Origin: a virus
Taxonomy: Duplodnaviria; Caudoviricetes
Length of the DNA: 64,000 bases
Virus record (IMG/VR): IMGVR_UViG_3300002185_000031
Coordinates: 1-64,000 of that record
Direction: 5' to 3' (one strand)
Shown: positions 1,885-46,429 of the stretch, one piece after another
How positions within the stretch are numbered: the first letter of the stretch is position 1
Layout of the letters: every line of letters starts with the position of its first letter
Made by a program: the position numbers and the translations under genes
Notes under the pieces: generated by a model
Told to the model about the DNA's origin: nothing
Databases searched by the model: none
What the model saw: the letters and a program-made list of their open reading frames with translations, nothing else

Positions 1885-3244
1885 ACTCTACATGACGATA
1901 ATATTTGTCTGGTATTTCAATACCCTTATCCAAACATCTATGAATTGCCCAAGCGAATTTATAACCCTTGGTTTGTTGAAATTGCCGCATTTCTTCCCAA
2001 GTTGTCAAAGTGTTAGAATAGCTAACGTGCTTATTCCACAATATGCTTTCTTCATCCACATGCATTAAATCGCTCACATCTGCAATGATACCCTCCTTTT
2101 GCGGAAACTGATACCCGCATGAGCAAATTCTAGCAGAGGCATGTAAAACCTCATCACATTTCGGGCATACTTTTACAGGCGCATCACCTTTTTGTTTGGA
2201 TTTTGGGGCGGGGGATAGGCTATATTCGTGTTCCTCACTTGGTAAGCCATGTTCTAAAATATTCGCTGCACAATCAAGGATTATGCCCTGTTTATCGGGA
2301 TTATTTGGGTCATATCTCATGCAACGCATGGACATTTGGATATATAAGACGTGGGATTTTGTTTTTCTTAGTAGCATTACACATTCGCAATCTTTCACGT
2401 CCACCCCTTCGCCAAACAGCTCGCAATTACATAATATTTCAATATCACTATTTCGGAATCGTTCCATCAACTCCGCTCGTTCTTTTTTGGGAGTATCAGC
2501 CGAAATGCAAGCCGCACGATACCCATTTTCGCAAAAGGTTCTAGCCGTTTCTTGTGCCGCCTTAACCGATACATTGTACACGATTGCTTTTTTGCCTTGT
2601 GCGTATTTGGCATATGCTTTGACGGTATCGGTGTAAACTTGCTCGTTTTCAAATGATATCGCCATTTTTTTAATGTCATATTCGCCATATTTGACTTTTA
2701 GCTCTGATAAATCAGTCATATTAAGGCTATAGCACTTTTCGGGAGCTAAAAATTTGTTATCTATTAGCCAGCGGACAGTCGAGCCTTTAATTATCACCTC
2801 GAAAATGTCGGCAAGTGATTCTTTTTTTGACAATCTAACAGGTGTGGCGGTAAAACCAATTAGGGAGCAGTCTGCCCATTCGATAACACGCCTATAGGAT
2901 GTACTGGAAGCGTGATGGCATTCATCCGCTATCAACAAATCTGGCTTTGGTATTTTATTAATGCGCCGTGATATCGTTTGTACCATGCCTATATGACATA
3001 ATGACATATCAACGCCGCATTTTATAAAAGTTTCTGTTAATTGCTGGCAAAGCTCCTGTCTATGAACTATCAACAGCACCTTCTTACCTTTTGCCGTTGC
3101 CATTTTTGCGATATGGGCGGCAATAACGCTCTTGCCGCCCCCACAGCTTAATTGCAGCAGTATGTTTTTATAGCCTTTTTTTAATGCATTTCGGGTATCT
3201 AACAGCATTTTTTGTTGATGGTCGTATAGTTGAAATATGGTCAC
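1850..3244 (-). CDS. Superfamily 2 (DEAD/DEAH-like) helicase with C-terminal Zn ribbon
   Basis: LSCGGGKS Walker A, ADECHH, FTATP, QMSMRCMR, CPKC..CSCG. Confidence 0.9.
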   Translation of the reverse strand: MTIFQLYDHQQKMLLDTRNALKKGYKNILLQLSCGGGKSVIAAHIAKMATAKGKKVLLIVHRQELCQQLTETFIKCGVDMSLCHIGMVQTISRRINKIPKPDLLIADECHHASSTSYRRVIEWADCSLIGFTATPVRLSKKESLADIFEVIIKGSTVRWLIDNKFLAPEKCYSLNMTDLSELKVKYGEYDIKKMAISFENEQVYTDTVKAYAKYAQGKKAIVYNVSVKAAQETARTFCENGYRAACISADTPKKERAELMERFRNSDIEILCNCELFGEGVDVKDCECVMLLRKTKSHVLYIQMSMRCMRYDPNNPDKQGIILDCAANILEHGLPSEEHEYSLSPAPKSKQKGDAPVKVCPKCDEVLHASARICSCGYQFPQKEGIIADVSDLMHVDEESILWNKHVSYSNTLTTWEEMRQFQQTKGYKFAWAIHRCLDKGIEIPDKYYRHVEFAMAARQEKAV

Positions 3245-3264
3245 ACCGCCTTTCTGTGCAATAA

Positions 3265-3624
3265 CTATTTCTTGTATTTTTTAACTGATTCTTTATATTC
3301 GCTTACTGTCAAAAATCTTTGCCTTTGCTCATCCCATAAATACCTATTGCGATTATGGGCATTTTCTAGGTCTTGCTTTAGTTTTTGGTTTTCTTGCTGC
3401 AACCTATTAAGTTTGCTTAAAAGCATAGCGTATTTATAATCTGCCATTTCTTGATTATTCTTAGTCATTGAATCTAGGCATTGCTTATACGAGCAATTTT
3501 CACTATTGCATTTTTGTGGTTTTCTTCTTTTGGTAAGATGTGGATTCCAAAAAACAATAATAAGAGCAACTAAAATAATAATGATATTCCAGCCTAATAT
3601 AAATATTAGCATATTATGTATCAT
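3265..3624 (-). CDS. Hypothetical protein, N-terminal TM helix and coiled coil
   Basis: ORF in operon with a hydrophobic N-terminus. Confidence 0.55.
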   Translation of the reverse strand: MIHNMLIFILGWNIIIILVALIIVFWNPHLTKRRKPQKCNSENCSYKQCLDSMTKNNQEMADYKYAMLLSKLNRLQQENQKLKQDLENAHNRNRYLWDEQRQRFLTVSEYKESVKKYKK

Positions 3625-3988
3625 TCCTTTCTGTAATCTTTTCTAAAATACTAACACATTCCGCAACCCAATCCCGCACAGATGGAAGATTTTGGCGTAC
3701 ACTTTCATCAATCTGCCAAACATTCAACGAAAACAAAATATTCTCTTGAAATTTCAAAAATGCTTGTTTTCGTGCTAATTCTTCCATTTTCACAGCGGTA
3801 TTACTAACCATTATTTTCCCTTCAAATTCTTCACACCTCGATTGCTTTCCTGTGTTATATTTATAATTTGGGCTGTTGGAATTAAAGCATTGCATTATCT
3901 TCAAAATATTGTCTGTATAAACGCTCTTATATTCATGAGGCTGATAATGTTTGCAAAGCGCACAACTTCTTATAGTTATTTTTGGCAT
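3614..3988 (-). CDS. Hypothetical Cys-containing phage protein
   Basis: RBS GGAGGTGA; CxxC...C...C pattern. Confidence 0.6.
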   Translation of the reverse strand: MPKITIRSCALCKHYQPHEYKSVYTDNILKIMQCFNSNSPNYKYNTGKQSRCEEFEGKIMVSNTAVKMEELARKQAFLKFQENILFSLNVWQIDESVRQNLPSVRDWVAECVSILEKITERNDT

Positions 3989-3992
3989 AATA

Positions 3993-4199
3993 TCACCTCC
4001 GATTAGTCACATACCAACCCCCGCAAAAGGCGCATTTATAACAGTTCCATCTTTGCCATCTTACGCCATATTTTGATTTTATAAAGGCATACGCATCTTC
4101 GCATGATGGGTAATACTTTTTACGTAAGCATGATTTGTAGGGGTTGGTTAGCGTTTTTGTGCTTAATGGTTTCTTTTTGGGTTCGTTGTTATGTTTCAT
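3993..4199 (-). CDS. Small Zn-finger-like phage protein
   Basis: CLRKKYY...YKCAFCGGWYVT; coupled to nadE stop. Confidence 0.6.
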   Translation of the reverse strand: MKHNNEPKKKPLSTKTLTNPYKSCLRKKYYPSCEDAYAFIKSKYGVRWQRWNCYKCAFCGGWYVTNRR

Positions 4200-4933
4200 T
4201 GTTCAAATGTAGGTATGGGGTTTCTTTTGTGATAACTATTTTCGTGCAAAACCATAATCCTCTTGTCTATATCACAATCTCCAGATGTGCCAGATATTAT
4301 AAAATCGTCAAGCTGCTCATAAGAGAATCCAAAAGCCTCCTCATCTGTTTTATCTTGCAATCCGTCAATTGGCGTTTTTTCAATTAGATGTTCAGGCAAC
4401 CCCAGCTCGTATCCTATTGCCTTAACTTGACGGAATAGCAGATTACCTAAAGGCGAAAAATCGCCTCTGTCATCACCATTTTTCGTACTCCAACCGATAT
4501 ATTTTTCGCTTGCATTGCAAGTGTTGGCTACTCTGCCGCCTAAAGAACCCGCAACGGCGTACAGTATTGTCATTCTTATTCTGGCAGGGGTATTTATGGT
4601 TGTTATATCCGATAGCTTAATTTCACTAAGTGATATCTCCTGTAAAAGGTTTTTAGTTATTTGACCGATATTGATTACATGCGCATCGATGCCTAATAGT
4701 TTACACACTTCCCAAGATGTAGCGATATCATACTGTTCTCCATCAGGCATTAAAACTCCTATAACCCTATCTTTACCCAAAGCCTCCACGCATAGAGCAG
4801 CGGTTATTGTGGAATCCTTGCCGCCGCTTATGCCGATCATTGCTTTTGTTTCGGGTGTTCCATTTTTGACGAAATAATCTTGAATCCATTTTATTAGTTG
4901 GCTTTTTGTTTCTTTTGCGCTAAAAGTATTCAT
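4196..4933 (-). CDS. nadE: NH3-dependent NAD+ synthetase
   Basis: GISGGKDS PP-loop, NTPARIRM, NASEKYIGWSTKNGD; no glutaminase domain. Confidence 0.92.
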   Translation of the reverse strand: MNTFSAKETKSQLIKWIQDYFVKNGTPETKAMIGISGGKDSTITAALCVEALGKDRVIGVLMPDGEQYDIATSWEVCKLLGIDAHVINIGQITKNLLQEISLSEIKLSDITTINTPARIRMTILYAVAGSLGGRVANTCNASEKYIGWSTKNGDDRGDFSPLGNLLFRQVKAIGYELGLPEHLIEKTPIDGLQDKTDEEAFGFSYEQLDDFIISGTSGDCDIDKRIMVLHENSYHKRNPIPTFEQ

Positions 4934-6429
4934 CAGAATCCTCCTTTATGCAATCTTTGTCGTATATTGAATAATGACTGTTCATTCATTATCATGCCAT
5001 CATAAAAAACAGTTTGCAACAAATTTGCACTATTAACACTCACAAGCCATTGGTTTAAAGTCTGAGGCGTGAATCCGTCTTGACAAACTAATTCGCCATT
5101 ATTATTCTGGTACACCACGCATAATCCTTTTTGTGACTTTTTAAAGCTACCCGTATCGGTTTTCGGGTCTTTGAAAATCATTATTGGCTTGCCGTCAACC
5201 TCGCAATAGGTGCTTTTGATTGCTATGCCAAATGTATCTCGTGAGAATGGCTTTAATTCGCCGTTTTCTTCTTCAAAACATTGCATAGCAAAGCTCCCAG
5301 AGGCTAAAGCCGCATTGTTGCAAGCAAATCCGTTATTTGCCAACTCGCTGTAGATTTCCTCCAACCTTTGCGGGGTTACGCTATCGCCATATACTGCTTT
5401 TATAGCGGGGTTAAGGACTTTATAGCCCTTGCTGTTGACTGTACCGCCAAAAATATCCCATAACTTATAGACAGTTTTCGTGATAATTTCAACTATATTG
5501 CCACTATCACCTCTTATCCCCAAAAAGCCTTTATGAGCTAAAATCTCATTTTTACATTGTGGGATTATATTATCTACAAAATTCCAGTAATCATAAGAAT
5601 CAGCGACAATGTTAAAGCTGTCATTGGGATAAATTTCAGTTAGCAGCCGTTTTAGCATGGTTATTTCATCACCATCAATGGCGAAACTGCTATTCATCAC
5701 AGAATGTTCAGTCGAAGTCAACCCATACGCCACAGCATCATTTTCTAAATCTGCACCATAGTAATCTCGCATATACAAGAGCATTGGAACTGTTGCAGTA
5801 TTGAGAAACGACAGGGCAAACCCAGCACTTGATTTAATCGCACTTTCAATGCTTTCCTGCCCTCTCATTGAAAAATCGCCGATTGCTCTTGCTTTTGAGA
5901 AATTATCAACTGTCAAATCGTAATACTTATCAACAATCTGCCGATACCAAAAACCTACTGTTGCGGATAATTGCGTATGCCATAGCGTACAGGACAATGA
6001 TGTTTCAAGCGTATTCACCAGCCATGCAAAATCAGGGTGAGTATTGGATATTTCAAACATTGGTACGCCAACAGGTACAAGCGTACCCTCGGCTAAAGAT
6101 TTTATTTGGATTGGCAAATAGCCTAAATCGTGCAGTTTTTCGATTTTATCATAATTGACAATGCCTTTTCCTAGTGCGCTATCCATCACGAGCTGATATT
6201 CTGACATTACTTTTTCTTTTGGTTGGTTGAAGAAGTGGTTGTTAAAACCGTCTATTAAATATTGCTTGATGTAGCCCTGCAAGCCGAAGTGTACAAGATG
6301 ATTTTTGTCTTTTAATCGGCTCATTCGTGGTGTGTAGTATGATACTATTTTTGTTGTAGTTTTGGGGTATTGGTCGTGATGCGTGGCTTTGTAGAAGTCA
6401 ATCAAAAGCAAGGGGTTATAAATATTCAT
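4933..6429 (-). CDS. Nampt/Namat-family phosphoribosyltransferase (NadV-like fold)
   Basis: DFYKATHH, DFSMRG, STEHSVM, VADSYD, IRGDSG, YGDSVT, KKSQKG motifs. Confidence 0.9.
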   Translation of the reverse strand: MNIYNPLLLIDFYKATHHDQYPKTTTKIVSYYTPRMSRLKDKNHLVHFGLQGYIKQYLIDGFNNHFFNQPKEKVMSEYQLVMDSALGKGIVNYDKIEKLHDLGYLPIQIKSLAEGTLVPVGVPMFEISNTHPDFAWLVNTLETSLSCTLWHTQLSATVGFWYRQIVDKYYDLTVDNFSKARAIGDFSMRGQESIESAIKSSAGFALSFLNTATVPMLLYMRDYYGADLENDAVAYGLTSTEHSVMNSSFAIDGDEITMLKRLLTEIYPNDSFNIVADSYDYWNFVDNIIPQCKNEILAHKGFLGIRGDSGNIVEIITKTVYKLWDIFGGTVNSKGYKVLNPAIKAVYGDSVTPQRLEEIYSELANNGFACNNAALASGSFAMQCFEEENGELKPFSRDTFGIAIKSTYCEVDGKPIMIFKDPKTDTGSFKKSQKGLCVVYQNNNGELVCQDGFTPQTLNQWLVSVNSANLLQTVFYDGMIMNEQSLFNIRQRLHKGGF

Positions 6430-7208
6430 CCAATCACCTCAATCAACGGATGCTCACCAGTAAATATACTATTAGTCGTATATATCCGTTCTAACAATCC
6501 GCTATTAATAAGTTTGCCCTGCAAGATACTATTTTCGCAATGAGTAACATACAAATAAATTTTATCTGCGCCCATTTCTTTTAGCTTTTCTGCTGATTTT
6601 AAAAAAGTTGTGCCATAAGAGCAAATATCGTCTACGATTAGCACATTAAACGGCTCTTTTGGAATATCGCCTATGATATCAAGCCGCAAAATATCTCCAT
6701 TTTGCCAGTTGCGCTGCTTAATCCCAAACGCATAAGGGAAGTTTAGCTTGTCGGCATATCGTTTGACTGCGCCCTCATCGGGATAGAAAACTATATCTTT
6801 TTCTCTTTGCAGCCCTAAATTTCTTTCTATTACTTTATTCACCATATTTGGAATCTGATAAGATTTATTGAGCAATGCCAATGCGACAGGCGAATGTACA
6901 TCGTGCAATTCAACAAACTCAAACCCGATTGAATTTATCAACTCGCAAAAGTATTTCAGCGTAAATACTCTGGAGCGGTCTTTTATAAAATCCTCTCTTG
7001 CATATGGGAGATACGGCATTATAAGCCCTAAAGAGCCGTATTTTTCTTTAAAATGCCTTGCTATGAAATAAAAAGGCATTTCTTCATTTGGTTCATATTT
7101 CCATTCTATAAATGAATTTTCACGAGAATCAAGATTTTCTGCTTTGATTCTTGGCGTTCCATCAGGATAATGCTCAATGGGTATTTGTGTACCATTTATA
7201 AAAATCAT
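6426..7208 (-). CDS. Ribose-phosphate pyrophosphokinase-like protein (Prs/Adps-like)
   Basis: YPDG, MPYLPYARED, DVHS, PDEGAVKR, IVDDICSYGTTF PRPP-binding motif. Confidence 0.88.
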   Translation of the reverse strand: MIFINGTQIPIEHYPDGTPRIKAENLDSRENSFIEWKYEPNEEMPFYFIARHFKEKYGSLGLIMPYLPYAREDFIKDRSRVFTLKYFCELINSIGFEFVELHDVHSPVALALLNKSYQIPNMVNKVIERNLGLQREKDIVFYPDEGAVKRYADKLNFPYAFGIKQRNWQNGDILRLDIIGDIPKEPFNVLIVDDICSYGTTFLKSAEKLKEMGADKIYLYVTHCENSILQGKLINSGLLERIYTTNSIFTGEHPLIEVIG

Positions 7209-7801
7209 ACGTCATTACCTCCATTCGTTAATCTATGTTCGTAATACTCCAAACTGCCCCAATTAATTCTATCATGTTGCCAATTCAAAACATCAATCTG
7301 ACACATCTGCATTGATTTCAAGGCAGCATTATGGCTAATTGCAGTTACGCAACCGCAACAGTCAGCATCAACTATTATTCGTGTTTCGGGGAGCTGCGCT
7401 TTTAGGATTATGGCATTGCTTAAAACACAGATACCCGTACAAACGCCGATTAATTCAATTTCATCATATCGTTGTAAATTCCATAATTCATTTAGCCCTG
7501 TAGTTCCAAAATGCGCTTTGCGGTGTATAGAGTATGGACTTGCATAAGGTCGTAATTCTGGTATGATTTTCCATCCCTCCGTATCTTCAATACAATGCTC
7601 AACAGGCAGATATCGCCCTTCTTGGGTTTGTAGATAGTCTGTTTGATGGGTGTCCTTTGTGAAAATCACATGATGTCCATTGCTTTGATATTCATTGATT
7701 TTATCTTGGACTTTTGGGATTATCTCCTTGGCTCTGTTTGTACCTAGTACACCTGTTACGAAGTCATTTTGCATATCCACCACTATCAAAATTTTGCTCA
7801 T
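7205..7801 (-). CDS. pncA: Nicotinamidase / isochorismatase-family cysteine hydrolase
   Basis: VVDMQNDF, DTH, EHC, RK, GVCTGICV (D-K-C triad and metal ligands). Confidence 0.85.
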   Translation of the reverse strand: MSKILIVVDMQNDFVTGVLGTNRAKEIIPKVQDKINEYQSNGHHVIFTKDTHQTDYLQTQEGRYLPVEHCIEDTEGWKIIPELRPYASPYSIHRKAHFGTTGLNELWNLQRYDEIELIGVCTGICVLSNAIILKAQLPETRIIVDADCCGCVTAISHNAALKSMQMCQIDVLNWQHDRINWGSLEYYEHRLTNGGNDV

Positions 7802-7802
7802 T

Positions 7803-8044
7803 TTAATTCCTCCTTTTTCGTTTATCTTGCTGCTCTTCGAGTTTTCTTTCCATCATTTTGAATATCCAGTGTCCAAATTTCAACAATAGAATAAATGGCA
7901 ATACCATAAGCATTATAGGCCAAAAATGCCGATTAGGGCAGTGAAAACTTCATTGTTATCCACATAAACGCTAACAATCGCTGCGCTGACTGCACCAACA
8001 AGAATATACCCTAAAATACATAGAATTACTACAACCCAAATCAT
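7803..8044 (-). pseudogene. Small membrane protein with a 1-nt frameshift in a T-run
   Basis: MIWVVVILCILGYILVG...IGIF stops early; adding one T at ~7922-7927 continues WPIMLMVLPFILLLKFGHW...RRN. Confidence 0.45.
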
Positions 8045-8170
8045 TTTATCGCCTTCCAGACTTCATTCATAGAAATTTCCTTAATAATTGCGCCATCTCT
8101 AACAAACAACGCTTGATTTTCTTCTATCACATATTCAACAGGCTCGACTTCGTACAACATAAAGTCTTTA

Positions 8171-8803
8171 TCATTTGACACTCCCCACGCCTAAAGGCGG
8201 GGGCTTTACGGCACAAGTGGTAAAGTCAAATATTTTGCTAAAGTATACGACATCATAAGTTTGCAACGGCATCCACCATGATACTGTATCGCCTTGCTTT
8301 TTATGATATGCCGATATCTTCATAAGGGAAAGATTGGGGAATGTTTTATTAGGCATGTGGTCTTTTTCTGCATCATGTAAACCTATCAGCACATTTTCAC
8401 CCCCCAAATACCTCAAAATCAAATCTCTAGCCTCCTCCCATCCATAACAAAAACAAACTTTATACCCCTGCCCCTGCAATTTCATAGCCCATTTAATTTG
8501 ATTATCGGTTTCCCCGCCAATTCTCAAATAACCATCATCTGCTATTTTGGGCTTTTTTAGTTTGGCTTCGGGCTTTTTTAGTTCTATGAATAGCCCATGA
8601 TAGCCATTTTTCGCAATAGGCAAAAACAAATCTGGCACTCCTGCCCTTACGCCTGTTGCCCTTAGCTTCATTGCGATGATTTTATTGCGCAAGCCGCCAT
8701 TTGGGATTGCGAATAATAGGGAAAGTTCAGGGTAGATGTTTAAATTTTGATTCACCCATGAAAATAATGCCATTTGATGTTGCTCTTCTGATTTTGGGTT
8801 CAT
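8171..8803 (-). CDS. VRR-NUC nuclease read through into a truncated second gene and the IS scar
   Basis: LFAIPNGG, GVPDLFL, FIELK (VRR-NUC); then a PNLSLMKISAYHKKQGD fragment; last 15 codons are IS hairpin DNA. Confidence 0.8.
   Translation of the reverse strand: MNPKSEEQHQMALFSWVNQNLNIYPELSLLFAIPNGGLRNKIIAMKLRATGVRAGVPDLFLPIAKNGYHGLFIELKKPEAKLKKPKIADDGYLRIGGETDNQIKWAMKLQGQGYKVCFCYGWEEARDLILRYLGGENVLIGLHDAEKDHMPNKTFPNLSLMKISAYHKKQGDTVSWWMPLQTYDVVYFSKIFDFTTCAVKPPPLGVGSVK
8175..8219 (-). mobile_element. 45-bp IS200/IS605-like end remnant (single hairpin)
   Basis: TTAC|CACTTGTGCCGTAAAG-CCCCCGCCTTTAGGCGTGGGG-AGTGTCAA; hairpin resembles the ends of the tnpB element at 51.75-52.99 kb. Confidence 0.65.
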
Positions 8804-8830
8804 TTTCCCTCCTTTTTGGCAATCAAATAA

Positions 8831-10375
8831 TCACCTCCATTCCACAGGCAAGTCATCCCCTGCCGATATTCCATACCCATACACTGTAGTTGTATTTGCA
8901 TAACCTGGAGCTACTCTTATCCCCCTTTCTTTCAGCTCCTTACTAAAATTGTTTTTACCCTTTGCAGGGATATTACTCTCATCACACCATTTTTTATATT
9001 CTTCAAATACATCTTGAAGTGGTGAACCATCTTCACTCTTGATTTTCACAAGAGATTCATTAACAAACTGCATTATAATGTCACTTTCAGCTTGGTATCC
9101 GTCCACAGCATCAATTACAGCCTTGACATCTTGCAAGCCCTCTGCAACAAACATCTTATAACCTTCAAGCAGCCAATTCAATATGCCGCTTTTTGCCTCT
9201 TCGGTAAGAAAATAATCTTTCAATCCCGCATCTTCCGATTTGGCATCAAAATGACGCTCAAAAGGGATTATTTTCACTCTGCGGCTCTTGAAAAGCGTGT
9301 TTTCCTTTACACTTGGCAAGAAATTTGAATGGAAAAATAGCTTAAACTGCGGCATAAATGTAAAAGTTTCTTGATACATGCGTCTTGCATCCATTGTATC
9401 TCTGCCTGTCATCTGCTTGACTTTACGCTCGGAGAGTTTCATGCCTTTTTCTGGTTCAGGTACAAGGACAATTCTTGCACCTGCTAATCTTGCCATAGTG
9501 GGGCTGGCTGCCTCAGCATTGAGATTTTTGGACACAGCTAAATGTTCAGGGTCAAGAGTTACGCAATAGTCACCCATGATATTCTGTATCGTGCCAAAAA
9601 GTGTACCTTTGCCGTTTCTTGTCAATCGTCCAAATGCGATAAAAAAGCACTCTAAATGCGTTTGTCCTGATATACCATAGCCTAAAGCCTTTTGCAAATA
9701 TCGGGCAAGTTCTTTATCCCCACACATGATTTCATCAATGAATTTTTCCCATCTTTCGCATTTTGCACCTCTGACAAAGGTAACATTCGCCATTTTGGTT
9801 AATTTATCGGTATGCTTTTGCTTTTGCGCTCGTTGTCTTTGCAGATTCATTGTCTTATTACGCACATTCAAAATCATCTTATCAGCATCAACATCATCTG
9901 GTAAAATGCGGCACTCTGACGAAGCCATTTTTATCATACGATTTTGTGTGGGTTCATCTTGTGCAGTAGTTGATTTTTTATCCCATTTTTGCATTGCTTT
10001 TTCAAAGAGCCGCTGTAAATTTTCAAGCTCTATTTTCTTGTTCATATCACCTGTTGACGTTATCGCACCTGTAAAATCCGTCACAACTAAACCCTGCAAT
10101 TGCGCCATAACATCATTGAGTTTAGCACTATAAGGGTTATTCGCTTTTAAATGTCTGACTATTAACTTCGTCTGTTGCGCTACTTCGTCACCCATATCAG
10201 GTTTCCAGCGGCTGCCGTCATATTTATACCATTCGCCTTTTTTGGGGGATATGGCAAAATATGCAAATTTCCCGACAAAACAGTCTGCCAAATAATACCC
10301 AAAGCCGATATCGTCAGCGGTATGTCTTGCCGTGTCGATTATGGGATATTTGTTTTTTTCGTGGGGGTTTGCCAC
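8831..10375 (-). CDS. P4-family phage/plasmid primase-helicase (D5-like)
   Basis: D5_N region, GRLTRNGKGTL Walker A, ARLAGARIV, C-terminal winged-helix EYKKWC..GKNNFSKEL. Confidence 0.9.
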   Translation of the reverse strand: MANPHEKNKYPIIDTARHTADDIGFGYYLADCFVGKFAYFAISPKKGEWYKYDGSRWKPDMGDEVAQQTKLIVRHLKANNPYSAKLNDVMAQLQGLVVTDFTGAITSTGDMNKKIELENLQRLFEKAMQKWDKKSTTAQDEPTQNRMIKMASSECRILPDDVDADKMILNVRNKTMNLQRQRAQKQKHTDKLTKMANVTFVRGAKCERWEKFIDEIMCGDKELARYLQKALGYGISGQTHLECFFIAFGRLTRNGKGTLFGTIQNIMGDYCVTLDPEHLAVSKNLNAEAASPTMARLAGARIVLVPEPEKGMKLSERKVKQMTGRDTMDARRMYQETFTFMPQFKLFFHSNFLPSVKENTLFKSRRVKIIPFERHFDAKSEDAGLKDYFLTEEAKSGILNWLLEGYKMFVAEGLQDVKAVIDAVDGYQAESDIIMQFVNESLVKIKSEDGSPLQDVFEEYKKWCDESNIPAKGKNNFSKELKERGIRVAPGYANTTTVYGYGISAGDDLPVEWR

Positions 10376-10388
10376 TTCTACCCCCCCT

Positions 10389-10637
10389 TTATTCTACAGA
10401 TTCAAATTGTGCTTCAAGTTGTGGGAGGTAAAAATCAAGCATGTTGTTGACTATCATTGAAATAGGGATAATTTCGCCTGTTTTTTCGCTTTGTTTTCTT
10501 GCTATTTCCTGCAATCGAGCCTTATTGTTAAGTGTAACATAGAGGTTTAACACAGTTTTTTTCTCTTTAGATAGTATTTGCTCTGATATGGCTAAATTCA
10601 TTTTATCACTCCCTTCAAGTATTAAATACTCTAACAT
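10389..10637 (-). CDS. Small putative ribbon-helix-helix DNA-binding protein
   Basis: TVLNLYV strand followed by two helices; first gene before the primase. Confidence 0.5.
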   Translation of the reverse strand: MLEYLILEGSDKMNLAISEQILSKEKKTVLNLYVTLNNKARLQEIARKQSEKTGEIIPISMIVNNMLDFYLPQLEAQFESVE

Positions 10638-16327: not shown

Positions 16328-17398
16328 CTAATTAAACCAATCATACCAAAACGTAACATAAGCCCCCAACTCAGCAGCAGTAGGCGTAACAGCCCTCAAA
16401 TCAAACCGCCATTCATTCCCAACCCGCTCCGCTCTCCGTATCTCCATAACATCCCCATCAGGATATAGACGAACCCGCCGCCCTATCTGTGTCATAGGGA
16501 TAGTCGCAAAATTAGTAGGGTGGACAACCGCCCCCACCTCAGTCATAGGCGGTATGCGAATAGCAATATGTATTAAATCCCCAGTCTGCCCTAAATAATG
16601 TAAATTTAACCGCCCCCACCAATGCGCCCCTGTTTCTCTCATGCCCATATTATTAGTATATGCACCTGTAGAGAAGTTTCGCAAGTAAATGGGTACAGTA
16701 ACCTTTTCATAAACAAATTCAATCGTATATTTTTCGTTTTTCGGTGTTAATGTCAATTTATCATCATGTATTATCTCATTATCAAAATTCATATGTAAAA
16801 AGTCAAAGCCGTGTATTTCTAACGCCTCAATATCTATTTCCTCATATCGTGGCACACTCTTAATGATTGAAGTTCTTATCTCATTCCCTGTGGCATCTAC
16901 AAAACGAATCGTCAACTCGCTCACAGTTTCAGGCGCAACAGGCTTTTCCTCTTCGGGCGGCAGCGGTGTAACATCATTGATGATATCATCCCGCCCCAGT
17001 GCATTCATAGCCAAAGATATCCTTTTGCGACTGTGCCATGTTGTAGGACTGCCTGCTATGCCTCTAAAAGCATCTTTAATATTTCCCTCTGAATCGGGTA
17101 TTTTAATAATAATCGTGTCATTATTTCGCACGTCTGTATCAGTAGGCATGTGTATAGTATAAGATGTAATAACAGGAAACGTGCTTGTTGCGTTAGGGTC
17201 TGGATTATCCACCGCCCCCGCTGTCATATGTACAGGTATATTGCTGTATATTTCAGTTATAGCGGGTTGCATAGGTAACTGTCGTCGCACATCCATATAA
17301 TGAGTGTCAAATATTTCAGCTAATGCCTTGCCCATCTGCTCAAGTTGATATCGTTCCCGCCTGTGTATTCGTGTTTGCGCCTCACTTCGCCATGACAT
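16328..17398 (-). CDS. Head-closure-like protein with appended MucBP-like and extra C-terminal domain
   Basis: DTDVRNNDTIII..AGSPT (head closure); LTIRFVDATGNEI..EIHGFDF..IEFVYEK (MucBP-like). Confidence 0.55.
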   Translation of the reverse strand: MSWRSEAQTRIHRRERYQLEQMGKALAEIFDTHYMDVRRQLPMQPAITEIYSNIPVHMTAGAVDNPDPNATSTFPVITSYTIHMPTDTDVRNNDTIIIKIPDSEGNIKDAFRGIAGSPTTWHSRKRISLAMNALGRDDIINDVTPLPPEEEKPVAPETVSELTIRFVDATGNEIRTSIIKSVPRYEEIDIEALEIHGFDFLHMNFDNEIIHDDKLTLTPKNEKYTIEFVYEKVTVPIYLRNFSTGAYTNNMGMRETGAHWWGRLNLHYLGQTGDLIHIAIRIPPMTEVGAVVHPTNFATIPMTQIGRRVRLYPDGDVMEIRRAERVGNEWRFDLRAVTPTAAELGAYVTFWYDWFN

Positions 17399-26256: not shown

Positions 26257-26766
26257 CTAAGTTTCAATCTGTTCTTGCAAATCTTTAATTTTAGCTCTTA
26301 GTTCCTTGCGCCGTTTCCGTATCGGCGCATATTCTTTTTCGTCCATTTCGCCATCGAGAAAAGCTATCGCATCATCAACTGTGCTGTTCAGCTCGGCTTG
26401 CATTTCTTCAATGTCACGCATTATAATCATGGCTTTCACATCTATACGTTTTGCGCTGCCAACATGCTCTCGCGGTTTCACGTTGATTTTGCCTCTTTTG
26501 TACTCATATTCGTTATACTTAAAGTCAAAATCAATATCGCCTGTGTACTCAACATCATATGGCTCATATCGAAATGCAGACCAGCCTATAATATACCCAT
26601 CTTTTACTTCAAGATATTTCACTTCTGGCGTTGGTTCTTCAAGTGGTATTCCTTGTTCAAGTAAAATATTCCGCAAGTCCATACCTTTTGACGGTTGTGG
26701 CTTTGCGCCTATATAAAAATCATTCATCAAGTGCCACCTCCAAGAGAAGTTATTCTGGTCGTCCAA
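26257..26766 (-). CDS. Putative fibre assembly chaperone
   Basis: YLEVKDGYIIGW; EYAPIRKRRKELRAKI. Confidence 0.5.
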   Translation of the reverse strand: MDDQNNFSWRWHLMNDFYIGAKPQPSKGMDLRNILLEQGIPLEEPTPEVKYLEVKDGYIIGWSAFRYEPYDVEYTGDIDFDFKYNEYEYKRGKINVKPREHVGSAKRIDVKAMIIMRDIEEMQAELNSTVDDAIAFLDGEMDEKEYAPIRKRRKELRAKIKDLQEQIET

Positions 26767-28841
26767 TGGTCGTTATTCTCATAACTAATATTTCCTCTCC
26801 AACCATTAAATTGATGTCCACCATGAAAACCAACAGACTGACTACCTGTAATGACGTTGGCATTGCCGCCCCACCAATTCATATGACCCTGCGAAAAAAC
26901 AGTAGAATGTCCACCAAGAACCATGCCTTCTAACCAAAAATTATTTACAGTGGTAACGACCCGAGTAACCATTCTAAAGCTAACATCACCGAACCCGCCT
27001 TCAACAAATAAAATTTCGTTGTTTAGAGGTCGTCTTATTAACGTTATGGGATTATTTCCCCATACATGCCCGTTAAAAAGTAATTCCGTACCAGCCCCAC
27101 TACCACCAGCCGCCAAAATCCACGGTGTCCAACTTGTGGCAAGATTGGTGCGCCTTGCTCTTTTCCATGTGAAAAACGGCGCAGATAAATTGTCAGAGAA
27201 TACTTCTAATTCCTGTATTATTCCTTGATTTGGCGTTTGTGTTACATTTAATATACGGCGCATATTTCCTGCTATTGGCAACGGCGGTCCATTAGCAACA
27301 ACTGACGCTTGCGCTATAGAATTCGTGCCGGCTTGAATTATAGCATTATAATCCGTTTGCGCAACATTTCCAGTCATTGAAAGTCGGCGTGTACCTCGTG
27401 CTATAGCATCATTATTGATTAATCCTCTAGTATTCCAGTTTTCCGCCCATGTAGTAGGCGGTGAACCAGCGGTATTTGCATTTGAGTTCAGCCAAAAACC
27501 CATATTATCAATCACTGTCGGCATGAAATCTCCATCAATGACTAATTGATGCTCTATTGGATTCCATTCGCTATCCCAATCGCTCTCTTCCCAGTTAATA
27601 GGAAAACGCCACTCAGGAAAGTTCCAACCACCAATGATTTCAAGTTTTAGTAAGACACCCCACGGCATACCAGCAGCCCAAAACGGACTTGAAGGGTCAG
27701 CAGTGTCACGGTCTACAGTAATAACCGCAAACATGTTGCGTAAGCTGGGCAGCCATCTTTCACTGCCAGCAGTTACAAGCGGATAAGTCGCAGAACCACG
27801 TATCAAATATCGCCCTGCTCTCACAGTTTGCCAACCATCCCGCATTGTGATTAATACTTGTGGAATAGACCAAGAGTTATCAACTATTATAGGGTTATTG
27901 AAATCAAGCCCTGCAACATCAATTTCTGCTATTCTGTCACGCACCCACGAAGTAGGCGCAACCCTTGTATCGTTGGCATTAGCGGGAACTTCACGATTCA
28001 CATATAAATTTTCTTGAATATGTACATTGTCATAAAATTCTGACACTTCATTTGTACGAAGTCCGCCATGTAAATTCAACATACCTGTAACAGTGCCGCC
28101 CGCAAGTGGCAGTCGTGTATTTATAGCTGTGTTTAAATCAGCCGTTGTTACAGCCCCGATATCGGCAGGAGATAAAACTCTTGAGGTCAAGTCGATAACA
28201 TGGCCTTGGTTATTGACAGTGACATTGCTATACACATTTGCGCCTGTCAAAGCTGTATTTCTTACCGTATGCACAGGGTGAACGTAATTATTTGCCCCAT
28301 CTTCCACGTTTAAAATAGTACGAGCCTGTCCTGCTGTTAAGTCTTGTGGATTACCACCTACCCCTGCATTACCTTTAATAGTATTAGCGGGCATATTGGC
28401 TAATTCTGCATTTGTAACGCTATCAGCTATCAAGTTAGCGGATATAGTGTTGCCATTAACAATAACCTGAATATGCGCCCCTGTTTGCCCCTGTAATACA
28501 GGTACAATACTTGACAGCGGCACTCTAAAAGAGGTGCCGCCAAAAGGTGTCATTACAAGGTCATTGCCGTCTAAATAAACATCTTCAAAAGCATTATAAA
28601 GAGGTACGTTTAAGGTAGTATTATCCCGCCTTGTAAATGATAGCATAGAGGTTGCTCCATCAAAAGTCGCTGACCGCAAATACTCCATAGCATCAAAATC
28701 ATCCGTTAAGTTGTCAAGGTCTTTTTGGATAGCGTCAACAATAGTATTTATTTGTCCTATTGCAGCTGTTGTCGCCGTGTCCTTGCGGTCAACATAGGCT
28801 TGAGTTGCCAATATTCCTGTAAAATTCTCTAAATTAGTCAT
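26727..28841 (-). CDS. Tail fibre / receptor-binding protein
   Basis: ANMPANTIKGN, NNYVHP, LPLAGGTVTG, RVAPTSWV fibre motifs. Confidence 0.75.
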   Translation of the reverse strand: MTNLENFTGILATQAYVDRKDTATTAAIGQINTIVDAIQKDLDNLTDDFDAMEYLRSATFDGATSMLSFTRRDNTTLNVPLYNAFEDVYLDGNDLVMTPFGGTSFRVPLSSIVPVLQGQTGAHIQVIVNGNTISANLIADSVTNAELANMPANTIKGNAGVGGNPQDLTAGQARTILNVEDGANNYVHPVHTVRNTALTGANVYSNVTVNNQGHVIDLTSRVLSPADIGAVTTADLNTAINTRLPLAGGTVTGMLNLHGGLRTNEVSEFYDNVHIQENLYVNREVPANANDTRVAPTSWVRDRIAEIDVAGLDFNNPIIVDNSWSIPQVLITMRDGWQTVRAGRYLIRGSATYPLVTAGSERWLPSLRNMFAVITVDRDTADPSSPFWAAGMPWGVLLKLEIIGGWNFPEWRFPINWEESDWDSEWNPIEHQLVIDGDFMPTVIDNMGFWLNSNANTAGSPPTTWAENWNTRGLINNDAIARGTRRLSMTGNVAQTDYNAIIQAGTNSIAQASVVANGPPLPIAGNMRRILNVTQTPNQGIIQELEVFSDNLSAPFFTWKRARRTNLATSWTPWILAAGGSGAGTELLFNGHVWGNNPITLIRRPLNNEILFVEGGFGDVSFRMVTRVVTTVNNFWLEGMVLGGHSTVFSQGHMNWWGGNANVITGSQSVGFHGGHQFNGWRGNISYENNDHWTTRITSLGGGT

Positions 28842-28853
28842 CTAATCACCGCC

Positions 28854-29126
28854 TCATTCTGCCACCGCAATAGCTTTTAGTTTGTCGATTGCCGTTTTCA
28901 TATCGTCAAGTTTATTAAGCAGTTCAGCATCAAGCACATCATAGACAAATTTTGTGTTTGCGGCGTTACTACTCTTATCATCATATGGCATTGTGGGAAC
29001 TACTGCGGATATTGCAACAGTTAGATTATCAATATTTAACGGGTCTGATATTTCTGTTAAACCAGTACCACCTTCTGGGAGTGCTTTACCATTTACAACT
29101 GTGTATCTTTGAAGCATATCAGCCAT
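28854..29126 (-). CDS. Small fibre-repeat protein
   Basis: VPTMPYDDKSSNAANTKFV fibre-repeat motif. Confidence 0.55.
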   Translation of the reverse strand: MADMLQRYTVVNGKALPEGGTGLTEISDPLNIDNLTVAISAVVPTMPYDDKSSNAANTKFVYDVLDAELLNKLDDMKTAIDKLKAIAVAE

Positions 29127-32002
29127 TACGGTGTCCCCCCTGTTCTGTACATGCCATCGTTGTCAACACGCCAATTTTGCGCCCAACTATGCTCACTATC
29201 ATTGAATGTAAAGTTATAAATCCCCTCTGGTTCAAGATATGACGCTTCATAGCCGCCAAGTTTTGAAAACACATCTGTAAACACATCAAAAAACATATCG
29301 GATAGCGGCTCGTTAATATCAATATTAAGTCCTAATTTATTTTGCCAATCTGGGTTAATAGTTCCGGGAAGCTGCATTGATATTTTTATCCCTGCATATC
29401 TAGGCCGTCCAGCCGCTTCATTTGCGGCTATTATCGGCAAAGCCCAAGGTGCATCAACCGTAATAAGATTAAACCAATGGTCATCACTTTCAGGATGTAT
29501 TTTTACTTCGTCCATTCTGTAAACATAGGTATATTGCTGTACACCGCCTGTAGGTAGTGGCAAACCGCCGCCTGTGCCTGTTGTAAGCACTGCAAAACTC
29601 ATGCCCTCATAAATGCCGAATGTTGGCAAATCTGCATCATCGGGTTTAGAAGTAAACACAGGGGTTATTGCTCTTATCGGATTAGTTTGTGTGCCTGCTC
29701 CTGTTGTACTCACGTCATCAGTATATACCGCAGATACTCCACCGTTGCCATTACTGCCAATGCTCTGCCATTCGCTCCAAACACCTTTCATTTTCCCACG
29801 ATATTCAAAAGTAATAGCATCATCAGGATAAGGCGAAATTAATTCGTCTGTATTATCATATATCAATACATTATTTGACAAAGCAAAGCAATAAGGCACA
29901 TAAGCGGAATTGCCTAATTGACTGTGCAAAATCATTGCCCAACCTGTCGGTTGAATAATATAAAAATGGTTTGGAGACCCACCAGCTATTTCATCGTTAA
30001 ATGGCGAACGTGTCCAATATGTTGAAGCTACATTGCTTTCATTACGCATGATGCGGCTTGCTTGGTCGGTGAACAAATCAAATGCCGCACCCTCTAACGG
30101 AGGTGTTCCACCAGACACATCTTCCGGCACATTTAATTCTGCCAAAGATGGGATAAATAGTCTTGTTAAAAGCCCGTCATCACCTTTACCAACTGTACCA
30201 TAAACAGGGTCTCGGCTTTCCAATACAGGTATACGTATTTCCTCAATTAGCGAACGCAACCCACGGGGAATAGTCATAATTGTACTTGTGTTTAATTCTT
30301 TGTGTAATTGGCTATTAGGCCATGTCCACCACGGTTCATTAAATGAGTTTACTGGACTTCTTAAAGGCGGCAATGGGTCACAAATAAAAAATGTAATGTC
30401 AGGATTGCCCCTATAATCAGCGTTTGGAAAGCCTTGATTTGCTATAGTATAAGTTCTGCCTTTATAGTATACCTTTGTGCCGATCGCTTTATCTTTCAAC
30501 TTTGTATATCCAGCAGGGGCAGGGTCATCGCTTAATTCATAATGATTAGGCTTTTGTACTACTGCCATTTGCCAGCCATTTTCTTTTTTATCGTCATAAT
30601 ACGCCGTATTAAATGTCGCCTTTGATTCAGGTGTGTAAGACGGCGGCGGATTTATTAGCATCTGCCCTTGTGTTACAATATCTGTACCCACTTCAAAATC
30701 ATGTGTATCTGCGCCGTATTTTTTTTCGGTTATACGATATAAGTCTGTACGCATTACATCTCTGTTTATATCATCCCATACAGACCATTTATCTGTGCGT
30801 ATCCAACCAGTCCATTGCTCCCAATCGTACATAATGTTAATGTATGTAAATGGGGTGAAAAATGAAAATGGATTGAATATTACAAGCGTCTGTATAACCA
30901 TAGGCTCAAAGCCATTAAAAACATGGTCAAAATGTTCTATTTTTAAAGAACGGCGTAAACTGTGTGGGTCGGCGGCAGCCGGAAATCCCACAGGCTCATC
31001 TGCGGGGGTAGAATCAAAGCGAACCAGTATTTTACCCGGCGTTTTGAAATCCGAATACCTATCTACCTTTGTATACCCATCATAATCAACACTAATCCCA
31101 CCATGCTCGTCAACCGTATGTGGGTATAAAGCCAAATCCTCATAATGTCTTGACATATGGGAAAAACTTGGGGCTTTATTATCAAGGTCAGGCTCATCAC
31201 CTTCATAAATTGGTGGGAAGCCGAATATATCTGTGCCGACTTTTGGAATGTCATCAATAGACTTTCCACTATCCACAACTTGCCCGTCTTCATCAAATAT
31301 TGCAATATTATCTTTATCAGCGGTTAGCACAAGTCTCATCGTATCATCTTGCAAATTCGCAACAGCCGTTTTTAAAGCTGCTATATCAGCCAAAATAGGC
31401 GCAAGATTGACATCGCCGCCTCCACCTAATTCTAAAGCCTCCACACGCAAAACAAGAGCATCTAATGCGGCTGGAAGAGCTTGCAAGAGCGTTATATCTG
31501 CCTCCATATCATTAATTAAGGCTTTTATATCAGATATATCATTTTCGATTGCCGTTAAATCAGGCGGCGTACCTCCCAAATCGAGATTGTTAATCGCATC
31601 CTCCAAATCTTCAATGGCATTTTTCAAAATCATAATGTTTTTCCTAGTTCTATCTTGAAAATAAGACGAAAAACCATTGATTATATTTGTACCCGCTGCC
31701 CAAGATTGCGCTGAGGTTCTGTTTTCAAAATTACGTATCACGCCTGTCAATGTAGTTGCTGTTTTACCACCATAATAGATAGTCTCTGAATGTTCGCCAT
31801 CATCGCTATATAGTGTCGCTACATTAGGGGCAGGCCACATGATATTAGCATTGACAACAGTTATAGTTGTGGTTGTGGCGGTTAAGTTCATAGTTATTTC
31901 TGTAATTATACTCTCTCTTGGAGCATCGTAAATATCGTAAATATTAGGCATTTCAATCCTCCTCAATCGTAACCAACTGCTTAATTGGTCTATCATAGCC
32001 AA
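29126..32002 (-). CDS. Large tail fibre/adhesin with internal DUF6273-like domain
   Basis: KLKDKAIGTKV..WPNSQLHKELN..RLFIPSLAEL..YWTRSP; coiled-coil N-terminal region. Confidence 0.7.
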   Translation of the reverse strand: MAMIDQLSSWLRLRRIEMPNIYDIYDAPRESIITEITMNLTATTTTITVVNANIMWPAPNVATLYSDDGEHSETIYYGGKTATTLTGVIRNFENRTSAQSWAAGTNIINGFSSYFQDRTRKNIMILKNAIEDLEDAINNLDLGGTPPDLTAIENDISDIKALINDMEADITLLQALPAALDALVLRVEALELGGGGDVNLAPILADIAALKTAVANLQDDTMRLVLTADKDNIAIFDEDGQVVDSGKSIDDIPKVGTDIFGFPPIYEGDEPDLDNKAPSFSHMSRHYEDLALYPHTVDEHGGISVDYDGYTKVDRYSDFKTPGKILVRFDSTPADEPVGFPAAADPHSLRRSLKIEHFDHVFNGFEPMVIQTLVIFNPFSFFTPFTYINIMYDWEQWTGWIRTDKWSVWDDINRDVMRTDLYRITEKKYGADTHDFEVGTDIVTQGQMLINPPPSYTPESKATFNTAYYDDKKENGWQMAVVQKPNHYELSDDPAPAGYTKLKDKAIGTKVYYKGRTYTIANQGFPNADYRGNPDITFFICDPLPPLRSPVNSFNEPWWTWPNSQLHKELNTSTIMTIPRGLRSLIEEIRIPVLESRDPVYGTVGKGDDGLLTRLFIPSLAELNVPEDVSGGTPPLEGAAFDLFTDQASRIMRNESNVASTYWTRSPFNDEIAGGSPNHFYIIQPTGWAMILHSQLGNSAYVPYCFALSNNVLIYDNTDELISPYPDDAITFEYRGKMKGVWSEWQSIGSNGNGGVSAVYTDDVSTTGAGTQTNPIRAITPVFTSKPDDADLPTFGIYEGMSFAVLTTGTGGGLPLPTGGVQQYTYVYRMDEVKIHPESDDHWFNLITVDAPWALPIIAANEAAGRPRYAGIKISMQLPGTINPDWQNKLGLNIDINEPLSDMFFDVFTDVFSKLGGYEASYLEPEGIYNFTFNDSEHSWAQNWRVDNDGMYRTGGTP

Positions 32003-34746: not shown

Positions 34747-35202
34747 TTAAAAATTTATTTGCGCTCTATTTTGCGCCAATGGTATCTCAAATTCCTCCGC
34801 AAAAGTGCCATAAATACTCTGCACTTCAAATTCAACCGCTGCCATGCCGAATTGAGGCTGCCATGTTCGCACTAGGATAACTCGCAATATGCGGTTATCT
34901 TGTAGTAAAGCATCTTGAAATACGCTCTCAACCTTAGTCTGAAAATATCCAAAAGACTTACCGATAAACTGTTCAAGCTCAATGCCCTCATTAGACAAGC
35001 ACCCAATCCATGAATAACGCTCTGTATTTACAATATGCCAAATAGCATTACGAACGGCAGATACTCCGTCAACTTCGCCATTTATGCGGCTTTCATCATC
35101 AAAAGATATAGCATCGACAACACGAATATAAGCAGGCGCACGTGATGGGCGGCGCACTGTTTGGATTGGCAAAGCTAAATCGTCTCTTAATCCTCTAATC
35201 AA
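34747..35202 (-). CDS. DUF2634/XkdS-like baseplate protein
   Basis: DGVSAVRNAIW..TERY..GIELEQFIG..LLQDNRI..VQSIYG. Confidence 0.85.
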   Translation of the reverse strand: MIRGLRDDLALPIQTVRRPSRAPAYIRVVDAISFDDESRINGEVDGVSAVRNAIWHIVNTERYSWIGCLSNEGIELEQFIGKSFGYFQTKVESVFQDALLQDNRILRVILVRTWQPQFGMAAVEFEVQSIYGTFAEEFEIPLAQNRAQINF

Positions 35203-39951: not shown

Positions 39952-39955
39952 TTTA

Positions 39956-40207
39956 TCACTCCTTTTTAAATGTTTTGAAACTATGCCCTGTAAGAGCTTT
40001 GAAAAATTCGTTAATGGTATCAGCATCAAGTAAATCAGCAGGCAAATTCTCACCAACAGCACAGGAACACTTCTCACATGCAGCATCTTCAACTCCCGCC
40101 ATCTCATAAATGAGATTTTGCGCATCAGATAAAAGTTCATTAAGCCGTTCAGCTTTCTCAATCGCAATATCAAGCTCTTTTGTGTCAATCTTAACTTTCA
40201 TTTCCAT
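39956..40207 (-). CDS. Small hypothetical phage protein
   Basis: MEMKVKIDTKELDIAIEKAERLNELL. Confidence 0.5.
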   Translation of the reverse strand: MEMKVKIDTKELDIAIEKAERLNELLSDAQNLIYEMAGVEDAACEKCSCAVGENLPADLLDADTINEFFKALTGHSFKTFKKE

Positions 40208-46329: not shown

Positions 46330-46429
46330 CCAGCATAATGTACTCAAAATCACAAAAACCGCTCTAAAATGCGCCTGCTCGCCAAAGCATGTAGAGACTT
46401 CCTATACCGCAAGAGGTGAAAAATGTCAA
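46330..46429 (-). promoter_or_regulatory. Truncated antirepressor leader with promoter
   Basis: TTGACA-17-TATAGG; retains the GGCGAGCAGG..AGAGCGGTTTT..GAGTA 3' half of the 48.7 kb leader. Confidence 0.55.

Follow-up and report, generated by a model that had tools for sequence, protein, structure and literature searches.

Why would a phage place a gene for an enzyme that destroys nicotinamide directly ahead of one for a transferase of a family known for using nicotinamide? The question is raised by a four-gene operon at positions 4196-7801 of the window, i.e., the whole 64,000-nucleotide stretch of DNA analysed here (positions 1 to 64,000 of the IMG/VR virus record IMGVR_UViG_3300002185_000031; Duplodnaviria; Caudoviricetes). 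The operon encodes a nicotinamidase (PncA), a protein related to the phosphoribosyl pyrophosphate (PRPP) synthetase Prs, a protein related to nicotinamide phosphoribosyltransferase (Nampt) and an ammonia-dependent NAD synthetase (NadE). Depletion of nicotinamide adenine dinucleotide (NAD+) serves bacteria as a common route to abort phage infection; NADase defences cleave NAD+ to ADP-ribose and nicotinamide, and the NAD+ reconstitution pathway NARP1 is the commonest phage answer. NARP1 consists of the enzymes Adps and Namat and is known from phages SPbetaL1, Bas63 and ICP1 (Osterman et al., bioRxiv 10.1101/2024.02.11.579819; structures in PMC12774641 and PMC13586617).

We consider the operon to be probably a deamidated, nicotinate-type version of NARP1, which would rebuild NAD+ from ADP-ribose and nicotinamide. 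PncA would convert nicotinamide to nicotinate, and the Adps orthologue would use ADP-ribose and ATP to make ADP-ribose pyrophosphate (ADPR-PP). The Namat-clade enzyme, having lost the selecting Asp and gained a Ser in its pocket, would then join nicotinate and ADPR-PP directly to give nicotinic acid adenine dinucleotide (NaAD), which NadE would convert, with ATP and ammonia, to NAD+; no adenylyltransferase step acting on nicotinic acid mononucleotide (NaMN) or nicotinamide mononucleotide (NMN) would be needed. Such a route would explain both the nicotinamide-destroying enzyme ahead of a 'nicotinamide' transferase and, behind that transferase, an enzyme with NaAD as its standard substrate, as well as the clade-defining substitutions in the pyridine pocket and the dispensability of an adenylyltransferase. 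From gene identities, conservation, active-site differences and co-occurrence, all of them comparative evidence, we infer the nicotinate substrate, the NaAD product and the counter-defence role. A preliminary description of the window had already proposed the path from nicotinamide through nicotinate and NaAD to NAD+, and the comparisons below support it, through Adps orthology, Namat-clade membership, pocket residues, co-occurrence and the usual absence of an adenylyltransferase.

The four genes, P0001 to P0004, all lie on the minus strand and overlap by 4, 4 and 1 bases (7801..7205, 7208..6426, 6429..4933 and 4933..4196), which together with Pfam and NCBIfam assignments agrees with their first description as four coupled genes for PncA, a Prs-like enzyme, a Nampt-like enzyme and an NH3-dependent NadE. 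The first gene, for the pncA-like nicotinamidase P0001 (198 aa; 7205..7801), matches the Pfam family Isochorismatase (2.1e-29), and alignment to the Pyrococcus horikoshii nicotinamidase 1ilw shows that the triad Asp9/Lys95/Cys125 and the metal site Asp50/His52/His69 are kept. It is a divergent nicotinamidase, since the NCBIfam nicotinamidase model gives only 31 bits against a cut-off of 174. The Adps-like ADP-ribose pyrophosphokinase P0002 (260 aa; 6426..7208) is 42% identical over its full length (E 2e-65) to the assayed Adps of SPbetaL1, an enzyme shown to make ADPR-PP. It scores 53 bits with Bacillus subtilis Prs and falls under every NCBIfam PRPP-synthetase cut-off, its match to Pribosyl_synth/ribP_PPkin likewise being below cut-off, and the residues R87, H121, D161, K185 and D212/D213 of ICP1 Adps (list from PMC13586617) are conserved. 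On its sequence, we take P0002 to be a PRPS-fold Adps orthologue, encoded next to the transferase with a 4-base overlap. The last gene, nadE, encodes the single-domain NAD synthetase P0004 (245 aa; 4196..4933), which matches TIGR00552 with 162 bits (cut-off 63.65) and Pfam NAD_synthase and has the PP-loop SGGKDS at residue 36; a domain search found no glutaminase domain in it, and its best solved relatives are the NH3-dependent NAD synthetases 2e18 and 3fiu.

The transferase P0003 (498 aa; 4933..6429) has the Pfam domains NAMPT_N and NAPRTase and is a member of the Namat clade, not of the Nampt clade. It scores 403 bits with the crystal structures of SPbetaL1 Namat (9w5x/9w5w; 43.9% identity to that protein) against 160 bits with human NAMPT, and its AlphaFold model (predicted local distance difference test, pLDDT, 92.3; predicted template modelling score, pTM, 0.91) finds its best fold matches in the same two structures, with template modelling (TM) scores of 0.90-0.93. 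The equivalents of D13, Y15, R40, F189, R192, the catalytic His, R306, D308, G360, D361, G390, S391 and F392 are all kept. Every ribose, phosphate and catalytic residue listed in the Namat structure paper (PMC12774641) is retained, and of the adenine clamp Arg40 and Phe392 are likewise present.

The pyridine pocket, by comparison, has changed. The ungapped alignment to human NAMPT in the preliminary description, with Ala at the Asp219 position, was reproduced by HMMER: Ala212 of P0003 corresponds to Asp215 of Namat and Asp219 of human NAMPT. That description overlooked a second change in the pocket, from Ala242 of Namat to Ser239 in P0003, as well as an insertion of about ten residues in the adenine-clamp helix. 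Seven residues make up the nicotinamide pocket of the Namat crystal structure, Asp215 and Ala242 among them, and Asp215 hydrogen-bonds nicotinamide (PMC12774641). The same source reports that Adps and Namat do not assemble into a stable complex. For human NAMPT, table 2 of PMC4919578 (after Khan 2006) lists D219S with a switch in substrate affinity and D219A with a loss of activity. The clamp insertion separates GSFAMQC from the terminal SRD of the motif, and is modelled as a beta-hairpin after a short helix, with a pLDDT of about 84-88; of the motif itself, GSF... and ...SRD remain, with Phe at position 3, a further Phe just before SRD and no clear equivalent of position 7.

Could such an enzyme still use nicotinamide, as part of an ordinary NARP1 accompanied by two unrelated helpers? 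The transferase would then join nicotinamide to ADPR-PP, while PncA and NadE fed host salvage or cleared excess nicotinamide. The loss of the Asp that bonds nicotinamide speaks against this, given that the D215A mutant of SPbetaL1 Namat makes 8.1-fold less NAD+ from nicotinamide (PMC12774641), and so does PncA, which would consume the transferase's own substrate; in its favour, the catalytic, ribose and phosphate residues are all conserved, and Ala or Ser in place of Asp215 may be acceptable in some natural enzymes. The pocket changes and the two extra genes have, furthermore, been inherited together across sequences that are about 43% identical, and neither gene occurs in any locus whose transferase retains the Asp. 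We hold this explanation to be very unlikely.

The name given to P0003 by NCBIfam, nicotinate phosphoribosyltransferase (NF006629, 439 bits), was considered as evidence of nicotinate use and rejected, as the PRK09198 label, in the annotations examined, also falls on ordinary Nampt and Namat sequences. The PncB-type model TIGR01513 gives 21 bits against a cut-off of 297.

The changed pocket is not a peculiarity of this phage. Transferases with Ala or Ser in place of Asp215 (Ala/Ser-type, as opposed to Asp-type) form a large and old clade, a point that the preliminary description did not see. Among the nearest 120 homologues of P0003 (60-74% identity; gut, rumen and termite metagenomes) the position is Ala in 120/120, and the clamp insertion is present in 114/120 (about 95%). 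Of 150 representatives taken at the 50% identity level, all that carry the insertion of about ten residues have Ala, Ser or Val, and most without it have Asp; a dozen combine Ala or Ser with an unmodified Namat motif. In a tree built without the column used for typing, the Ala/Ser clade (139 distinct sequences), in which the position is Ala, Ser or Val throughout, stands apart from, and as sister to, the Asp clade (172 sequences). When columns were required to be at least 80% conserved within each clade, only four separated the two. Three are substitutions, with Asp215 replaced by Ala or Ser, Ala242 by Ser (99% against 99%) and Ser239 by Gly, and the fourth is a single inserted residue. Since Asp215 and Ala242 line the nicotinamide pocket, the differences between the Ala/Ser clade and ordinary Namat are almost confined to the pyridine site. 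The early-branching members of the Ala/Ser clade, including phage phAss-1, have a canonical clamp motif (GSYTYQYVTRD type) and the same operon, as do three IMG/VR loci.

Several features of these sequences stand apart from the pocket. In phAss-1 (OQ749652, 96.8-101.3 kb), a TAG-recoded human-gut phage, the cluster is surrounded by a tRNA array, and a 139-aa protein of no known family is encoded between the transferase and a 307-aa NadE. Three Asp-type sequences (P0162, P0190 and P0230) carry about 290 residues inside the clamp motif, an insert that begins with Cys after GSF/GSY, finishes with HN before TYQ and looks like an intein. A second common insertion point in Namat and Nampt sequences lies near P0003 residue 317-320 and splits the matches in two (representatives of 530-900 aa; Bacillus phages); it could represent an intein, an intron or a homing endonuclease.

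PncA and NadE accompany the change in the pocket, in viral as in bacterial loci. From IMG/VR we took 80 loci found with an Ala/Ser-type profile and another 80 found with an Asp-type one, together with 8 kb of flank on either side, and searched their six-frame open reading frames (ORFs) with profiles of the four proteins encoded in the operon; the counts cover 81 Asp-type and 88 Ala/Ser-type viral loci. Adps lies within 8 kb in 77/81 Asp-type loci, where PncA and NadE are both absent (0/81 each). In the Ala/Ser-type loci PncA is found in 81/88 and NadE in 83/88, and the partners are always on the transferase strand; the preliminary description had asked whether the Asp-to-Ala change co-occurs with pncA and nadE in phages. 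An adjacent Adps orthologue is present in all complete Ala/Ser-type loci; the loci without it abut a contig end, as do most of those without PncA, while the NadE misses include two genes just outside the flank, one truncated contig and one 23%-complete fragment. After dereplication at 70% identity, all partners occur in 9/10 Ala/Ser clusters against 0/60 Asp clusters. The association was repeated in contigs of bacterial and archaeal genomes, where all three partners occur in 65/82 loci, and of the remaining 17 several stop at a contig end or close to one. These loci are mostly from Lachnospiraceae, Oscillospiraceae and other Clostridia, and are often prophage-like.

The four-gene set recurs in more than 80 viral loci and more than 60 genome contigs and is therefore no chance neighbourhood. 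Two gene orders were found, PncA-Adps-Namat-(x)-NadE and Adps-(x)-Namat-(x)-NadE-PncA, which speaks for selection acting on the set rather than for a frozen block. Among the GenBank phages an Adps-like gene occurs in 1438 records, a NadE-like gene in 54 and a PncA-like gene in 12; megablast of the operon against GenBank phages gave no match, and the records closest to it are unannotated human-gut contigs and phAss-1. A bacterial-looking 73-kb contig (L171) encodes, at 6570-10492, an Isochorismatase protein, a 292-aa Adps-like protein, a Ser-type transferase, which branches at the base of the Asp clade, and NadE; an NrtR-type regulator (Nudix plus winged-helix) lies 7 kb away at 16543-17217.

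By the proposed route the operon would have no use for an adenylyltransferase, and none was found near it. The absence of NMNAT/NadD from the window, reported in the preliminary description, extends further: PF01467 has no match in the whole 74,627-bp record, the same search being positive in 14/14 control genomes, and it is also absent from 40/48 related viral records and from 17/18 of those with a completeness of at least 90%. The gene most often added inside Ala/Ser operons encodes a Macro-domain protein (46/88 loci, against 12/81 of the Asp type); no such gene is present in this window. The Macro-domain protein Adpp of NARP1-AP converts ADPR-1''-phosphate to ADP-ribose for NARP1 and answers the aRES defence (bioRxiv 10.64898/2026.01.28.702374). 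The Macro accessory therefore supports ADP-ribose, and not ribose-5-phosphate, as the pathway input.

A number of observations nevertheless count against the nicotinate route. The candidate nicotinate substrate is read from two pocket residues and the neighbouring genes. In P0003 the clamp insertion removes the Tyr396 position of the published signature, so that adenine recognition, and hence preference for ADPR-PP, is less certain in this phage than in early-branching members. Fitch parsimony places 2 state changes on the transferase tree, and with only about two evolutionary changes the co-occurrence reflects long-term retention and not many independent origins. A complete phage of 354,809 bp (an IMG/VR contig with terminal repeats) carries PncA, Adps and an Ala-type transferase, with no NAD synthetase in the record. 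The solved NadE relative 3fiu is presumably a Francisella enzyme preferring NaMN; as 3fiu is the second-best solved relative of P0004, a Francisella-type NMN synthetase role for NadE was considered and judged unlikely, as an adenylyltransferase would still be needed. The lack of NadD in a phage says little, because hosts have NadD anyway. Finally, a NadM-like adenylyltransferase, below the family cut-offs, was found in 8/48 related viral records and would fit an NaMN intermediate. One viral record (L037) encodes, at 253-2010 of L173, a NadM-like protein of 259 aa, a DarG-like Macro protein of 153 aa and PncA directly upstream of Adps-Namat-NadE, and on the bacterial contig L170 a NadM-like adenylyltransferase adjoins an Ala-type enzyme.

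These NadM-like genes, some of them beside the operon, are what would be expected if the operon boosted the Preiss-Handler pathway: the Prs-like enzyme would make PRPP, the Ala-type enzyme NaMN, host NadD (or the phage NadM-like protein) NaAD, and NadE would finish. Yet only 1/88 viral and 2/82 genome loci have an adenylyltransferase gene within 8 kb of that for the transferase, whereas Nmnat is present in 94% of phages with NARP2 (Nampt plus Nmnat; Vibrio phage KVP40), and Bacillus phage G, which follows an NaMN route, does carry NadD. Namat keeps a PRPP-dependent activity in vitro (PMC12774641), human NAMPT has been crystallised with nicotinic acid and PRPP and with NaMN (6ta0, 6ta2), and the NCBIfam family name, although only a label, would suit such an enzyme. 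Set against this, P0002 is 42% identical to an ADPR-PP-making enzyme while scoring under all PRPP-synthetase cut-offs, early-branching members keep the clamp signature that is said to enforce ADPR-PP over PRPP (PMC12774641), and the Macro/Adpp accessory indicates an ADP-ribose input. We regard a PRPP-based operon as unlikely.

We therefore keep to the nicotinate version of NARP1, and extend it, with marginally less assurance than for the operon itself, to the clade: Ala/Ser-type enzymes are probably nicotinate ADP-ribosyltransferases (nicotinate + ADPR-PP to NaAD + pyrophosphate, an activity undescribed before) which, with PncA, Adps and NadE, would form a fourth phage NAD+ reconstitution pathway that dispenses with a mononucleotide adenylyltransferase, is common among the phages that infect gut, rumen and termite-gut Clostridia, and is also encoded on some bacterial chromosomes.

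Whether this chemistry serves counter-defence can be asked from the setting of the operon. The phage is temperate and contractile-tailed, with genes for an integrase (242-1222), a D5-type primase (8831-10375), a tail sheath (38512-40188), a portal (46426-47802) and a terminase (50335-51624), and the operon sits in a minus-strand block; the whole record has an estimated completeness of 84%. Sequencing runs that contain its DNA are termite-gut metagenomes, and two of them may represent the source sample; no RNA run is among those listed. Upstream of pncA lies a leader (7802..7890, minus strand) with an AGGAGG ribosome-binding site at 7814-7809, 7 nt ahead of the first ATG. A promoter is not established, because the single sigma-70-like match that the scan found (9/12, at 7883-7855) is no more than shuffled sequence yields, and a terminator scan of 3200-8900 found no terminator-like site. 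A 68-aa ORF at 3993-4199 (minus strand), left uncalled by the metagenome gene caller, has a 4-base overlap with the nadE stop and may be a fifth operon gene. Three large ORFs of the tail region (704, 958 and 711 aa; 26727-32002 and 35199-37334, minus strand) had no PHROG family match at E 1e-5.

A temperate lifestyle leaves room for the same chemistry in another role, i.e., general NAD homeostasis or ADP-ribose recycling by an auxiliary module borrowed from bacteria and not specifically directed at defences. The Ser-type operon on the bacterial-looking 73-kb contig, with its NrtR-type regulator nearby, would fit such a role, and bacterial NARP1 homologues are known, their physiology being unclear. 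Against this, the module is found mostly on viral contigs or in a prophage-like setting, experiments have shown the related two-gene NARP1 to counter defences, and the frequent Macro/Adpp partner answers a specific defence, aRES (bioRxiv 10.64898/2026.01.28.702374). We judge a housekeeping role distinctly improbable.

The reaction of nicotinate with ADPR-PP to give NaAD is in no paper found by our literature search. A term search covering the original NARP1 paper, the Aravind-lab survey (PMC9503650) and the aRES/Adpp and RyDEP preprints, with the Namat-structure and NARP3 papers outside it, found that none of them mentions nicotinamidase, PncA, NadE, nicotinic acid or NaAD in such a context. 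Full-text literature searches found no paper that links phage NARP1 to a NARP4 or to NaAD, and none of relevance on a phage nicotinamidase together with an NAD synthetase and Namat.

If our reading of the operon is true, it would add a new enzyme activity and a new route to NaAD, one that avoids the NadD step, which is otherwise regarded as universal in NAD biosynthesis. NARP1 would have diversified at the pyridine site as well as by accessory genes, and tools that call every Adps and Namat pair NARP1 would be merging two chemistries, which a simple annotation marker could separate: Asp or Ala/Ser at Namat position 215, and Ala or Ser at 242. It would also raise the question of why phages of gut anaerobes should go via nicotinate. 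We can only guess that charged nicotinate stays in the cell, that a host nicotinamidase competes for nicotinamide, or that the ATP-driven last step is irreversible.

How, then, does the operon compare with known systems? With NARP2 and NARP3 (PnuC plus NadR; PMC13464706) it shares the phage-encoded rebuilding of NAD+. Those two pathways depend on an adenylyltransferase and take PRPP or nicotinamide riboside as their starting point, whereas this record has no adenylyltransferase, transporter or NadR. With the Preiss-Handler pathway (PncA, PncB, NadD, NadE) it shares a nicotinamidase at the start, an NAD synthetase at the end and a predicted passage through NaAD; in place of a PncB-type enzyme and NadD, it has the Adps/Namat pair, and therefore the ribose-phosphate-AMP part would come ready-made from ADP-ribose. 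A full Preiss-Handler set is found in phage G (NC_023719, 200-207 kb), with the isochorismatase gp275, the PncB-type nicotinate phosphoribosyltransferase gp277, the NadD-like gp281 and the NadE gp283, and no Prs-like gene; a Nudix gene and one for a KptA-like RNA 2'-phosphotransferase are interspersed in that locus. NARP1-AP, i.e., NARP1 with the Macro phosphatase Adpp, resembles the relatives of the operon that carry a Macro gene inside it, in the 46 of 88 loci noted above. It adds a phosphatase upstream of the pathway, while the present operon, itself without a Macro gene, adds a deamidase and an amidase around it.

The closest comparison is with NARP1 itself, with which the operon shares an adjacent Adps orthologue (42%), a Namat-clade transferase (43.9%, TM 0.9), the catalytic core with Arg40 and Phe392, and an expected ADP-ribose input. 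The two differ in that the operon enzyme has Ala for Asp215, Ser for Ala242 and the clamp-helix insertion of about ten residues, and in that the operon adds PncA and NadE, the predicted product of its transferase being NaAD and not NAD+. The original view that the operon is distinct from both NARP1 and NARP2 thus holds: the Asp215 of NARP1 is lacking, and with respect to NARP2, Nmnat was not found in the record and the transferase is paired with Adps. We set the operon outside NARP1 because its transferase lacks the nicotinamide-binding Asp and because two more enzymes are carried with it.

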